50,396 nt of DNA from a plasmid. The position numbers are program-made. Shown piece after piece: positions 12,001 to 27,000 of this stretch. Every line of letters starts with the position of its first letter. Position 1 is the first letter of the stretch. The stretch lies in sequence record CP155420.1; one strand, 5' to 3'.

Positions 12001-15000
12001 TATACCAAAAAAACATTAAAGGAAACTAAAAGGATATACGATGCCACAAAAAAGAATTTATCTTTATGTTCCATTTAAAGACAAAGAAAAAGTAAAATCA
12101 TTAGGGGCAATGTGGGATGATAAAGAAAAAAAATGGTTTGCTCCAAAAAGCTTAGATAAAAATATTTTCTCACAATGGCTTTATCCGCACCAAAATAAAG
12201 AATTTTCATTTGATGAAAATGAAGTTTTAACTACTTTTAAATCTGCTTTAGAAAATCAAGGTTTAATCGTTGATGGCTTACCTATCATGGATGGCAAAAT
12301 CCACAGAGTAAAAACAACAACAGATAAAGGCAGAGAAATGAGTGGAGCTTATAGTGGATTTTTAGATGAATACCCTGCTGGTTTTATTCAAAATTTTAAA
12401 ACAGGTATTAAAGAAAATTGGAAAATGCCTTTAGAAAATGCAAAACAAAACATTGTAAGTTATCAAACTCCTAGTCAAAAAAGATTACATAATTCTACAA
12501 GAAATAATACGAAACAAGACATTTTAGAGCTTCAGCAAAAAACAGCATTAAAAATTGAAGAAGAATATAATCAAGCTAATTGGGCTCATTCAAATCATCC
12601 TTATTTAAAGAAAAAAGGTTTTAGTGAAAACTTTTATCTTAAGCAGGATAACAAAGGTTCTTTACTTATTCCCTTAAAAGATGAAAATGGCAAATTATGG
12701 TCTGTGCAAAGAATATTCCCAAATGGTGATAAAATTATTGGTGTAATTAAAACTAAAGAAGAAAAAGAGCAAGGCATTGAATATTCTGCAAAAAAATCTG
12801 GATGTTTTCATCTAATAGGTGCAAAAAACCTAGAATATTGCAAAGAATTTATCATAGCAGAAGGCTTTGCTACTGCTGCAACTATATACAAAGCACTCAA
12901 TAAGCCTGTAATAATGGGTATAGATGCTGGAAACTTATCAAAAATCGTTGAAACCCTAAAAAACAAATTTCAAAACACTCCTATTACCTTAATAGCCGAT
13001 AATGATAAAAAAAGAGAATTAAAAGGTTTTTCTAATGTCGGAGTGGAAACTGCAAAAGAAATTCAACAAAAATTTTCAGATATTAAAGTTATTATTCCAA
13101 AAATCAGCAATCAAGAAGCAGAACAAGGAATAAGTGATTTCAATGACATTTTTTTAAATAAAGGGCTTGATGAAGTCAAAAAACAATTAAATTTCATTGA
13201 TTTTCATAATAAACTTAAAGCTTTTAAATCTATGGAAAAAACACAACCTGAAAAAGAGATAACTAGACAATAATAGTTACTCTTTGTAATCATAATATAT
13301 AATAATATATAAAAAATATTTTTTATATATTATTAGTTAATAATAGTATATTATAATTACTATAAATATACAAAAAAAGGATTAAAAATGAAAAATACAA
13401 TCAAACTAGCTTTATTAGGTGCAGTTATTACTGGTGTTTTTTCTGCTTGCTCTTCAGAGCCAAAAACAGTGCAATATTACGAAGATCCAAAAAATGCTAC
13501 AGAATTAGAAGCTAAAATCAAAGAATGTGATAAAAATGCCAATTCTGCACAAACTGATACAGAATGTGCAAATGCTTATAAGGCAAACTATTCTAAGTCG
13601 TTACAAAATTTTCATAACGAAGCCATTTCTGATGAAGAAGCCACAAAATATTTAAAAAAGAAATAGCAAATGAATTTCTTTCAATTTTTAGGCGAAAGCA
13701 TACAACAAATTGTTGATGTAATAAGTTCTGTTTAGATTTTTAGCCCTTATAAAAGGGGTTAAAATGTCTACAAATTACTCAATATACTCATAATTTCTTA
13801 AATATTTTTGAAAATATATTATTTGGTCAATCAGTAAAGTACCCTAATTCTTTTTCGATAAGATCATAAACTTCCTTATGCTTACTATGATATATTTTTT
13901 TATTTTGACACGCTTTCTTTAAAAAATCACGAATTTTGTCCTGGTATTCTTTCGGATATTGTCTTACCACATGATCGTGTTCATAATCTTGGGAGCAATT
14001 AAAAAGATTATCATCTTTACTTTTATCTCTTGCCATTTTATTCCTTTCGAAAATAAGTTTTAATTTAGTATTATAAAACTAATGATTTTAAAGCAATATT
14101 AATAAATTTATCTATAAAAATGTCTGTATTATATATAAATAAATATTAATATATAATAGTTATTTTTAGTAATTAATAATATACATTAATTATATATTTT
14201 CTTTATATAATGCTTAAAATCTCTCATTAAATCATCTAAATTATTATATCTATTTTTTACATTATCATTAATTCCTTTTTCTAAAAAGTCGCATTTAGTA
14301 TTTATCAAATTTGTTCTGCCTGTAGCTATAAAATATAAAACTCTACTTAAAGCATAGATTTCATCACTCTTATCATAATTATTAAACCCTTTTTTCTGCA
14401 ATCTTGAAATTTCATTTAAACTTCCTTTTATTTCTGTATTTTCACTTGTTAACTCGCTATTTAATTCTTTTACAAGACCAAAATCAGAAATTTTTATTAC
14501 TACAATATCATCATATTGTTTTATCAAAATATTTTTAAGACTTATATCTCTATGTAATATATTTTTATTCCATAAAGTTTTAATACCTTTTATTATTTGA
14601 ATACCTAAACTAATTCTTTCATCGGATGAAAGTTTTGAATTATTTTTATGAATATATTCTTTTAGAGTAAAATCAACATATTCCATAATATATTCTTTTT
14701 TATTCTCATCTAAAGAATATACTTTTAAAATATATGGATTATTTATCTGTTTCATTATATTAAATTCTTTAATAAATCTTTGAATTTCTTTATCATTAAC
14801 TTTTTTGTTTAATTTTTTTAAAGCAAAATAATGTTTATAAAATTCATCATAATATTTATACACTTTTGCATAAGACCCATCACCAATCAAATCTAAAGAA
14901 TAATTTTTATTTACTTCTGGATTGCTAATAGAATTCAATTTAACAAATATAGGAATTGCTTCATAAATAGTTATTTTTTGCATTCCCAGTGGTATTTCAC

Positions 15001-24000: not shown

Positions 24001-27000
24001 CCAAAAGATCCAAAGAAGTTGCAATGAGTGATAAAGAATTAGAAATTTTGAACTTTGCGAAAGATTATCAGAGCTTTTAGGAGATAAAGAAGCAATTGCG
24101 GATTTAAAAAAATTATATACAAATCATCCTGAAATGTTTAAGGATATGCAAGAAGTCAAAGAAGTAATTAATAAAGTAGTAAGCGAACCTGAAATCATTG
24201 TTGATGCAAATAGAGATAAAAGAAATTATGAAATTATTAAAGCAGCAAAAATCATAAATGATAAAAAAATGGCTGATGTAGTTATAAAAAACGAAAGTGG
24301 AACAAATGAGATATTTCATGCAAATAAAAAAAGAATAAAAGAGTTTAATAGATTAAACAATAAAGATAATCTGTTGCAGGTAGAGACCCCAACACTCTCT
24401 ACACACCAACTTAATGGATTGGAGCTAATGGATAAAAATCCATCTGGTGCAAATGCACTTTCTGCAACTATCAATCAAACTATACCACAAAAAGACAAAT
24501 CTGCAAATGATTTTAAAGCAAAATTAGAAGAATTTAGCACCAAAAAAACAAATGCAATTAAATCTATAAATAAGGAGTTTAAAAGATGAAAAAATATTAC
24601 ACCAACAAAAAGGAGTTAAACAATGAATAATGTAAATCTAATCGGATACTTAGGAAAAGATTTTGAAGTAGGTGCTACAAATAGCGGAAGAGTTTATGCA
24701 AAAAATTCTCTTGCCATTACTAAGCGATGGAAAAATGAAAGAGGCAATGAAGAAAGTAGCACGACTTGGATACCTATTGTTTTATTTGGCAAAAGTGCAG
24801 AAAGTGCATCAACGCACATTAAAAAAGGTTCGCAGTTTGCGTGTAGTGGAGAATTATCATCCAATCAATATCAAGATGAAGATGGAAAGACTAAAACAAT
24901 GTTAAGTGTGATTGTATCTAAATTTTATTGGCTTGGCAAAAAAGATAAAGATGACAATGGAACACAAAATCCACAAGTCCCACCAAAAGAGCCAAATATT
25001 GATTATGAAAACACAAATATAGAATCTGAAGAAACACAAGTATTTTAAGATTTAAGGATAAAAATGTCTATAAAAAATTTAAGTGTAGAAGAATTAGCAC
25101 AAGAATTAGAAACTTCAAATCATGAAAAGCTGATTAAAGCTTTGTTTTTATTTGAAAAAAGTTCTTCAATGGAAGATCTTAATTCAGATCAAATAGAAAT
25201 AATTTTAGATGAAGTATATGAATTTTATATCAATCATAAATCTATATCTTCTTTTTTACAAGAAGATATAAACCAAGCATTAGATGAAGCTATTGATAAA
25301 GAGCTTTGCAAAAAACAAGAAAAATCATTTGAAAGGTAAAAAATGAAAAAAAATATCTTTGGTGTTAATAAAGCCATAGGGAAATCTCATCCCCATGAAA
25401 ATGGGGCAAGACTAATAAGCCTTGACTATAATTATACAAAGGAGTATAATTATAACTATGAGATTTGTGTAACTCAATTTAACCACCTCTTTTCTGAGGT
25501 TAAATCTAGCCACAGGGTTGCAGCCCTATGGCTAACCCCACAAAATTATATCCAAAATTTAAAAAATCTATTCTTATTCTTACTTCCTTATTAGTTTTGC
25601 CTAACTTAGCATTTAGTGCTGGTATTCCTGTAGTTGATGTAACAGCAAATCAGCAAATGGCTACACAAAACGCTAAACAAGTGGCAGAATGGGCTAAAGA
25701 TGCTTCAAGATGGACTGAAACAGTAGCACACTATCAAAAACAAATTCAAGCTTACAAAGATGAACTTTTATCAAAAACAGGCATTAGAGATTCAGTAACT
25801 TTTCTAAAAGATATTAAACAAATATATTCAGATTTTGCTGAAGCTGGGCAAAATATTCAATCATTTTACAATGATGTATTAAGAGATCCACAAAACTTTT
25901 TAAGTGATAAAGGTAATGAAATTTTGGAAAATATACGAGCTTTGATCGATGTAATTTTGATTTTTTAAGTCAATCAGAAAAAAACATTTGTAAAATGAAT
26001 TTAATCACTTATGCTGCTCAAGTAGAAACCTATAATCAAGCTTCAAAACAAATGGATACGATTAGCCAAACACTCCAAAAATTGCAAGATAAATTAGTAA
26101 ATTCCAAAGATATTAAAGAAAGCACAGATGTTGGCAATGCTATTCAGTTAGAAGTGGCAAAAATTCAAATGGTTAAAAATCAAGTTGATTTAGCTAATTC
26201 AAGCTATGAAAACCAAAGAAAAATCCAAGAAAATATGGCTATACAAGAATACTCTAAGTCGTTACAAAATTTTCATAACGAAGCCATTTCTGATGAAGAA
26301 GCCACAAAATATTTAAAAAAGAAATAGCAAATGAATTTCTTTCAATTTTTAGGCGAAAGCATACAGCAAATCATTGATGCGATAAGACAAGTAGGCACAA
26401 ATGATAAGGTTGCAGAACTTAGCGTATTGCTTTCTATTATTATCACTTTAGTCATTATGTATAAAGGTTATGAAGTCTTAATGGGTAGAAGTCAAAGCCC
26501 TATTAGAGAATTAACTTGGGATATAACAGGAAAGCTTGTTGCCATTACTTTTGCCTTAAATTTAGGGGGTTGGCTAGATTTAACAATTTCAACAATGGAT
26601 GGATTATACGAGTGGGCAGGAGGCGGAACGCAAATGTATAAAACGCTAGATGAAATGTATGCGAACACAGCACAACTCACAAATATAATTTGGGCTAAAT
26701 CAAGTGGTGTTGGAGGTGCTATTTTAGCCATTGCAGCAATGCTACTTTGTTATGTAGGATTTGCAATTGCTGTAGTTCCTGCACTTACAATCTTTGTTGT
26801 TACTACCTTCACACAAACACTGCTTGTAATCACCGCCCCTATAGTATTTTGGCTTTTAGTTTTTAAAGCCACTAAAAATGTTTTTACGCAGTGGATAGGA
26901 CTTTTACTTTCAAATACTTTAGTGATTTTACTTGTAGGCTTATTTTTGGGTGTTTTTATGGAGCAAATAAGCGGATGGATTTCTCTACTATCAAGCAAAA

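Follow-up and report, generated by a model that had tools for sequence, protein, structure and literature searches.

EexN of a Campylobacter pTet-type plasmid shares its C-terminal tail with VirB5: a candidate specificity module for entry exclusion

We analyzed a 50,396-nt stretch of the plasmid record CP155420.1 (the window; all coordinates are window positions), which belongs to a Campylobacter pTet-type conjugative plasmid (MOBP/MPF_T). Here eexN, the gene for an entry-exclusion lipoprotein, ends in the same segment as virB5, and the C-terminal ~25 residues of EexN are a copy of the extension found at the C-terminus of the plasmid's own VirB5, the stalk and pilus-tip protein in its type IV secretion system (T4SS). 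Tail sharing is family-wide, the tails fall into allele classes, copying has run repeatedly from virB5 to eexN, and in unrelated groups of conjugative systems the two tails co-vary at the protein level. Our preferred reading, to which we give a probability of about 0.6, is that the tail is a specificity module shared by the two proteins and kept matched in pTet plasmids by gene conversion. The process at work would be entry exclusion, itself a known phenomenon, with a gene-converted specificity tail common to the exclusion protein and VirB5.

Positions 12000-28000 of the window match 281 PLSDB records, 279 of them from Campylobacter, the best at ~98.9% identity, and the closest plasmid (L001) served as the near-identical reference for comparisons of alleles, indels and intact genes. 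The features that concern the shared tail are:

12041-13273, + strand: DUF5710/Toprim primase gene (traC-like), next to eexN on its upstream side, a position conserved among plasmids of this clade
13388-13666, + strand: eexN (cpp23 homologue), entry-exclusion lipoprotein of 92 amino acids (aa); lipobox ..VFSAC (Cys21) in the signal peptide, followed by an EexN core that reaches about residue 67-69 and by the shared tail
13589-13725, + strand: repeat copy A; comprises Y68-K92 as the codons of hinge and tail (YSKSLQNFHNEAISDEEATKYLKKK), the stop, a spacer of 3 nt and the initial ~19 virB6 codons
13670-13735, + strand: virB6 5' stub, an open reading frame (ORF; MNFFQFLGESIQQIVDVISSV, then a stop) that came along with the copied tail
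13733-13770, + strand: stem-loop, core AGCCCUUAUAAAAGGGGUU, directly 3' of the stub and outside the repeat; fold z = -2.1
25343-26327, + strand: virB5, present as three ORFs (25343-25594, 25528-25968 and 25995-26327) owing to two 1-nt homopolymer deletions (25553 and 25921); intact in relatives, 323 aa
26250-26386, + strand: repeat copy B, the native junction of the virB5 3' end and the virB6 5' start; donor of the copied segment
26331-27323, + strand: virB6, full length, TrbL/VirB6 family (PF04610, E = 2e-31)

The two copies form a direct repeat of 137 nt (13589-13725 versus 26250-26386) at 96% identity, with an exact 113-nt core that occupies 13592-13704 in copy A; the chance expectation of a 113-nt exact repeat in a 50-kb window of 29% G+C is about 1e-50. 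These limits fit the repeat that an original prediction for this DNA had placed at 13592-13725 and 26253-26386, and its reading of copy B as the native virB5/virB6 junction also holds. Copy B consists of the last 25 codons of the virB5 frame, which ends with its stop at 26327, and the start of virB6 at 26331. Copy A consists of the last 25 codons and the stop of the ORF 13388-13666, followed by the 21-codon ORF 13670-13735, which is the virB6 stub that had likewise been predicted. Because only its first ~19 codons are homologous, corresponding to the VirB6 N-terminus, this stub is not a VirB6, and it is probably non-functional. The stem-loop that follows is a possible end of the eexN transcript; a terminator scan did not call it, and it has no T-run.

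The gene carrying copy A had been described as a graft of 25 virB5 codons onto an unrelated lipoprotein. The graft was confirmed, but the lipoprotein is, as judged by its family match, an EexN of the IncN-type entry-exclusion family. NCBIfam model NF033894 (EexN) scores 55.6 bits against a cutoff of 33, aligning aa 6-69 with model positions 5-64 of 65, and in near-identical plasmids RefSeq labels this ORF 'EexN family lipoprotein'. An annotation table of pTet already names 'cpp23 EexN', followed by a 'truncated VirB6' of 32 aa (PMC9032879). The lipobox, read by eye, is MKNTIKLALLGAVITGVFSAC followed by SSEPK, and Cys21 is invariant across 20 aligned homologues. For VirB5, PF07996 matches both fragments in the window above its gathering score, and TIGR02791 falls below its equivalog cutoff (26 versus 132 bits) yet spans positions 2-216 of 220 in the intact L001 homologue. 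The family models stop at residue 69 of 92 in EexN and at residue 298 of 323 in VirB5 (TIGR02791), exactly where the repeat starts, and the shared 25 residues are therefore a C-terminal extension of both proteins. All of the 120 EexN homologues compared (120/120) retain the tail in frame. In a variant homologue of 89 aa (P0080), the tail ..YSKSFDYKPQIIDSIRQVDTSDKVV is an in-frame fusion of EexN to N-terminal residues of VirB6, which presumably arose by deletion inside the copied segment.

The canonical position of eexN, seen in IncN, IncW and IncX1/X3 plasmids, is between virB5 and virB6 (PMC8923210), an order that we confirmed in R46, R388 and 9 other plasmids. In the window and in all Campylobacterota relatives eexN instead lies 3' of the DUF5710/Toprim primase gene, and in pTet-type plasmids 10-13 kb separate it from virB5. 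The canonical position is typical of the EexN family and not strictly defining, as IncX4 departs from it too: in L031 (NZ_OX030705.1) an EexN-family gene at 1501-1716 follows taxC and a sigma-like helix-turn-helix gene on the upstream side of the T4SS operon. A Helicobacter locus (L022) considered as a candidate for the canonical order proved to have its eexN after a topoisomerase gene.

Tail classes and the direction of copying

The centre of the repeat is variable. Compared with the window, L001 has a wholly different central sequence with indels (KPRESAMEFFKNNK, versus NFHNEAISDEEATKYLKKK in the window) and a different VirB6 start, and each of the two plasmids carries its own central sequence at both loci. 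Conserved blocks enclose this centre: TCTAAGTCGTTACAAAA to its left and, to its right, ~35 nt of virB6. We counted three tail classes in PLSDB with allele-specific probes, scoring records and places separately, and found class 1 in 67 records (122 places), class 2 in 86 records (157 places) and class 3 in 103 records (221 places). Since the places approach double the records, most records hold the same class twice. From the place counts and the rows among the matches listed, we estimate that roughly 80-90% of plasmids have the same tail type at both loci.

The tails comprise at least 10 widely divergent types, the majority of them present on both EexN and VirB5. A large protein database, queried with full-length VirB5 for the VirB5 set, yielded 45 distinct EexN tails and 27 distinct VirB5 tails. 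An EexN counterpart was found for 20 of the 27 VirB5 tails at 60% identity or more, for 13 at 80% or more and for 3 at 100%, against a shuffled null whose maximum was 50%; different VirB5 tails are only ~26% identical to one another. Pairs confirmed as matched came from C. jejuni and C. coli (3 classes), C. estrildidarum, C. upsaliensis (169 nt at 98.8%), C. lari pCL2100 (111 nt at 99%, for each of its eexN copies) and, as partial tracts, a Helicobacter sp. Inverted forms do occur: in metagenomic plasmids eexN sits on the opposite strand, so that the segment is an inverted repeat there, and the tails are still matched.

The gene that supplies the stub gives the direction of copying. In C. lari pCL2100 virB5 is followed by rha, not by virB6, and the shared segment comprises the VirB5 tail and the first four rha codons, which leave an MSSV stub ending in a stop after eexN. 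In each case the stub after eexN comes from the gene that follows virB5, which is virB6 in pTet and rha in C. lari; copying therefore went from virB5 to eexN, which agrees with the polarity of the original prediction. Identical codons in the shared tail number 24 of 25 in the window and 23 of 23 in C. lari. The left end of the tract is constant, at the hinge YSKS or, in C. lari, KSMG, whereas the right end differs by lineage, at -6, +25, +37, +44, +51 or +92 nt from the stop, and therefore several independent conversion events took place. Tail sharing is thus a conserved, multi-allelic feature that has been repeatedly re-copied, and no one-off scar. A relic model, with an ancestral virB5-eex-virB6 order, copy A as the native eex/virB6 junction and VirB5 as the chimera, was rejected on account of the rha stub in C. 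lari and the lineage-specific right ends. Between mismatched classes, homology flanking the variable centre amounts to ~17 nt and ~35 nt only.

Some plasmids carry more than one eexN. The two copies in C. lari pCL2100 (L002, 38398-38827 and 42767-43196) are identical, and each lies beside a DUF5710/Toprim primase paralogue and has the VirB5 tail and rha stub. The megaplasmid NZ_CP014745.1 (L046), which combines a type VI secretion system (T6SS) with pTet, has one T4SS only plus an orphan, frameshifted eexN. This second gene, unannotated and on the minus strand at about 9400-9990, has a YKPQVSTKELMEQVEKI tail and its own virB6 stub and lies beside a second primase gene; intact 88-aa versions of it exist (P0061, P0066). 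The orphan may be aimed at another tail class.

Eex and VirB5 tails in other conjugative systems

In canonical operons of enterobacterial, Pseudomonas and Vibrio plasmids, the Eex C-terminus resembles that of the system's own VirB5 and differs by plasmid group:

pM911-1.2: VirB5 tail QQLNAPTADLNNL; Eex tail KQLNAPTPDLNNLEE
IncN2: VirB5 tail GEDLSMPNVTE; Eex tail DDGLSMPKVTP
IncX1: VirB5 tail FRKQQLEAEEPSFK; Eex tail FRYQQLHAKEPNFK
IncX3: VirB5 tail VDYKAAF; Eex tail VDYKDAF
R46: VirB5 tail FVFGTGGDVTASPSIN; Eex tail FVLGKEDGEINSPKI
R388: VirB5 tail GMPTIQ; Eex tail GMPKIR

The same is seen in IncP plasmid R751, where TrbJ ends in ..QLRQGSYRASPARTW and TrbK in ..CLRRGGDFKPSPKREW (Smith-Waterman (SW) score 53, shuffle p<=2e-4). 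We compared tails across 16 systems, 12 of them canonical operons, with 200,000 permutations. The system's own VirB5 tail was the top match of the Eex tail in 12 of the 16, and the remaining 4 matched a close relative's tail. None of the permutations reached the observed score sum (0/200,000, P<5e-6), and the result holds for the 12 canonical operons alone. The tails scored 50.4 versus 17.2, whereas an internal VirB5 segment used as a control gave no signal (15.9 versus 16.1). The variable regions of EexN and VirB5 thus co-vary between plasmids, as those of an exclusion-specificity pair should.

The codons differ even where the residues agree. Different codons specify 25 of the 59 tail residues that are identical in the canonical operons, and in pM911 11 of 12 tail residues are identical at 78% nucleotide identity. 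These synonymous differences point to conservation at the protein level and not to recent conversion. Judged from such codon comparisons, the tail match is upheld by protein-level conservation outside Campylobacterota and by DNA-level renewal in pTet. We found no paper that describes a shared EexN/VirB5 tail, and the relationship between the TrbK and TrbJ tails is not stated in the papers examined; key older papers such as Haase et al. 1996 lay outside this search.

Further features of the window

Relative to L001, the window has 1-nt deletions at 16648, 17362, 17465, 21345, 22705, 24045, 25553, 25921 and 28614, all in A/T homopolymers, and genes split by such deletions include virB4 (20693-23459), virB5 (25343-26327), an AAA ATPase gene (16395-18185) and other ORFs. 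Because the deletions sit in A/T homopolymers, they bear the signature of sequencing error, and the ORF splits look like long-read homopolymer error rather than pseudogene decay. About one third of the 323-aa VirB5 is also 61-70% identical to Campylobacter proteins of the TrbM/KikA/MpfK family (P0185-P0244; 288 aa, on ~29-kb plasmids), which suggests another shared or mosaic segment among T4SS accessory proteins.

Readings of the 137-nt repeat as a res site or as a regulatory RNA were dropped. The repeat is situated inside coding sequence, sister plasmids do not share its centre, which is unrelated even in sisters with an identical resolvase (WP_002809050.1), and no consensus terminator occurs in it. 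Other repeats were seen elsewhere. Two 48-nt direct repeats (43984-44031 and 44084-44131; 94%, 100 nt apart) flank or overlap the start of repA (44066-45286) and are possibly iterons or rep control sites. An 82-nt direct repeat (4577-4658 and 8212-8293; 95%) has copies 3.6 kb apart. At 37832-38123, two ~65-nt repeat families with a spacing of 162-168 nt code for 'CPQCNKGFL..WGCSEFKQGCK' units, which look like tandem zinc-ribbon repeats in a coding region, probably a topoisomerase C-terminus. In L001, five copies of a ~21-35 nt unit (AAACTATTCTATTTATGTCAA) occupy the kinase-hicB intergenic region (5674-6022; window about 15690-16040) and resemble iterons or partition sites.

Possible role of the shared tail, and known systems

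In the model that we favor, the match would be maintained by gene conversion from the virB5 3' end to the eexN 3' end, which often drags along the start of the downstream gene as a stub such as that of virB6. The hypervariable tail, with its discrete classes, would be the specificity module of exclusion: EexN in a plasmid-bearing recipient would present VirB5's peptide and engage whatever the cognate VirB5 tail itself engages, and the block would fall on same-class donors alone. We infer from the sequence comparisons that the tail may set exclusion specificity, acting by mimicry or as a decoy. Engagement of the cognate tail's partner is proposed because the literature on functional tails and on VirB5 involvement is compatible with it. 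C-terminal truncation or a late stop abolishes exclusion by TrbK-type proteins (PMC8923210), and Haase 1996, as cited there, gives the same C-terminus requirement for RP4. In RP4, recipients are protected by trbJ as well as trbK (PMC11045733), and exclusion is ~3.5-fold with trbK alone and ~1e4-fold with trbJ and trbK together (bioRxiv 10.64898/2026.09.24.754286). Furthermore, in Xanthomonas a DUF4189 protein binds VirB5 and thereby protects kin, and the authors of that study raise the question of whether exclusion proteins of conjugative systems act in the same way (bioRxiv 10.64898/2026.05.09.723464). A general MPF_T rule, by which EexN and TrbK lipoproteins copy or mimic the tail of the cognate VirB5 or TrbJ and this tail sets exclusion specificity, is a more tentative proposal that we hold at somewhat less than even odds.

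Several points weigh against the model. Gene conversion alone gives DNA identity without any function. Mismatched plasmids make up roughly 10-15% of records among the matches listed and are still typed conjugative, so the tail match is not obligatory; we deliberately fetched five such loci (L004-L008), in one of which EexN NLHNE is paired with VirB5 KPRES. Plasmids pFORC46.1 (NZ_CP017230.1) and p20827L (NZ_CP045046.1) are natural mismatches of this kind. The 12 canonical systems were hand-picked from a spread list, are few, and are in some cases mutually related. The R46 (by SW), P. syringae, IncX1b and R388 pairs are individually non-significant, and the P. syringae EexN is nearly without a tail. 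Our literature search gave no experiment on EexN (cpp23) of any Campylobacter plasmid, and we found no solved structure for the EexN family. AlphaFold2 (AF2) predicts a confident helical core for EexN (residues 25-70) and the same shape for both tails, in which the last long helix runs through the hinge and is followed by a break and a short terminal helix, but the tail models are low-confidence and the VirB5 model is poor (predicted local distance difference test score, pLDDT, 51). Because of this low confidence we make no structural argument. Finally, the partner of the tail is left among several candidates, namely the incoming VirB5 oligomer, VirB6 and VirB2.

The most serious alternative is neutral concerted evolution, in which an old accidental in-frame duplication of the virB5 3' end on eexN has been homogenised by conversion and the tail has no role in EexN. 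The near-perfect DNA identity in the window (24/25 codons) and in C. lari (23/23) is the expected outcome of conversion, plasmids with mismatched tails occur and seem viable, and the virB6 and rha stubs would be junk carried along. However, protein-level tail likeness with many synonymous differences recurs in the unrelated IncN, IncX, IncP and pM911 operons, the match persists where eexN is inverted, and the tail is in frame in 120/120 EexN homologues. The ~17-nt and ~35-nt flanks shared by mismatched classes are also a poor substrate for passive conversion, and the C-terminus is essential for exclusion in TrbK-type proteins. We regard a purely neutral origin of the match as unlikely.

The tail could also be a docking or assembly signal that both proteins use in their own cell, for contact with VirB6 or another T4SS part or for localisation, with EexN recruited to the resident machine. 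Co-variation of the tails needs just a common partner, exclusion in pKPC_UVA01 requires the eex gene in donor and recipient alike (PMC8923210), and RP4 trbJ and trbK act jointly in the recipient. The present data fit docking and decoy alike; on the other hand, tails differ very widely among co-circulating plasmids, as would suit a self/non-self discriminator more than a housekeeping assembly signal, and for this reason we consider a docking signal rather improbable. It would likewise make the tail functional.

The original prediction saw in the repeat the sign of a past rearrangement and a risk that recombination would excise the core of the plasmid. Direct repeats of 113-137 nt are able to recombine, and the stub shows that DNA was copied from the virB5/virB6 junction. 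The interval between the copies holds a kinase gene, hicAB, the AAA ATPase gene, resolvase, vapD, virB2, virB4, rha, ssb and virB5; of the genes named in the prediction, the resolvase, vapD, virB2 and virB5 are inside, but rep is not, repA lying at 44066-45286. Recombination between the copies would leave a rep-bearing circle without virB2, virB4 and virB5. A query for the chimeric deletion junction found it in none of 226 plasmid records (0/226), and thus gave no sign of such excision. Furthermore, distant Campylobacter and Helicobacter plasmids have conserved the feature in multiple alleles, with differing tract ends and even in inverted form, which makes a chimeric gene left as the scar of one rearrangement, and a deletion threat to the 12.7-kb segment, very unlikely. 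An assembly duplication artefact, which the original prediction had allowed for and to which the homopolymer deletions of the window might lend some colour, can be set aside because the two-locus repeat recurs, in several sequence versions, among Campylobacter plasmids assembled independently hundreds of times, in different laboratories and on different platforms.

The way in which lipoproteins of the TrbK and EexN types recognise the incoming cognate T4SS has been a question since the 1990s for IncP, IncN, IncW and IncX plasmids, and a shared, co-varying tail offers a concrete hypothesis that can be tested by a swap of ~20 residues. If the general MPF_T rule proposed above is true, VirB5 would be the donor-side determinant for EexN/TrbK exclusion systems, the pTet repeat would be that rule made visible at the DNA level and maintained by gene conversion, and the tail classes would be exclusion groups among co-circulating Campylobacter resistance plasmids. 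The shared tail would account for the contribution of TrbJ to exclusion, and it fits the recent report of an unrelated periplasmic protection factor that binds VirB5. Tail classes, being easy to type, could mark which tet(O) or multidrug pTet plasmids are able to enter strains that already carry one, and could be put to use in building orthogonal exclusion gates.

Concerted evolution through gene conversion, with a variable cassette set between conserved blocks, is known from pilE/pilS-type cassette systems. These resemble the pTet arrangement in having a variable segment with short conserved flanks and one-way copying from a donor locus to an acceptor locus. In pTet, by contrast, just two loci are involved and both of them are expressed; no dedicated recombination machinery can be seen, and the arrangement apparently serves to match sequences, not to diversify them.

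Among exclusion systems, TraS/TraG of F-like plasmids and Eex/TraG of SXT/R391 are, according to summary accounts of them, similar in that short variable regions of a recipient protein and a donor T4SS component define exclusion groups. By the same accounts, the two partners there differ in sequence and recognise one another, with a VirB6-like protein on the donor side, whereas in pTet the two proteins carry the same sequence and the donor side would be VirB5. Tpf (XAC2611, the DUF4189 protein; bioRxiv 10.64898/2026.05.09.723464) is, like EexN, a recipient-side envelope protein with kin-specific protection, and it targets VirB5, both Tpf and VirB5 being highly variable. It differs in its unrelated fold, in having no shared tail and in acting against an antibacterial T4SS (X-T4SS fratricide) and not a conjugative one.

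The IncP pair TrbK/TrbJ (RP4, R751) is closer to the pTet pair: a lipoprotein encoded beside the VirB5 homologue, with an essential C-terminal region and with TrbJ contributing to exclusion in the recipient, and in R751 the TrbK and TrbJ tails are similar to each other, as in EexN and VirB5. TrbK belongs to a different lipoprotein family from EexN, and its tail likeness is at the protein level only. The IncN EexN (pKM101/R46 Eex; Pohlman et al. 1994, as cited in PMC8923210) is of the same family (NF033894), a small lipoprotein of an MPF_T plasmid, and in R46 its last 15 residues resemble those of TraC/VirB5. In contrast to IncN, pTet eexN is not between virB5 and virB6 but beside the primase gene, 10-13 kb off, and it carries a ~25-residue extension that is DNA-identical to that of VirB5, after which comes a stub derived from the gene next to virB5 on its 3' side.

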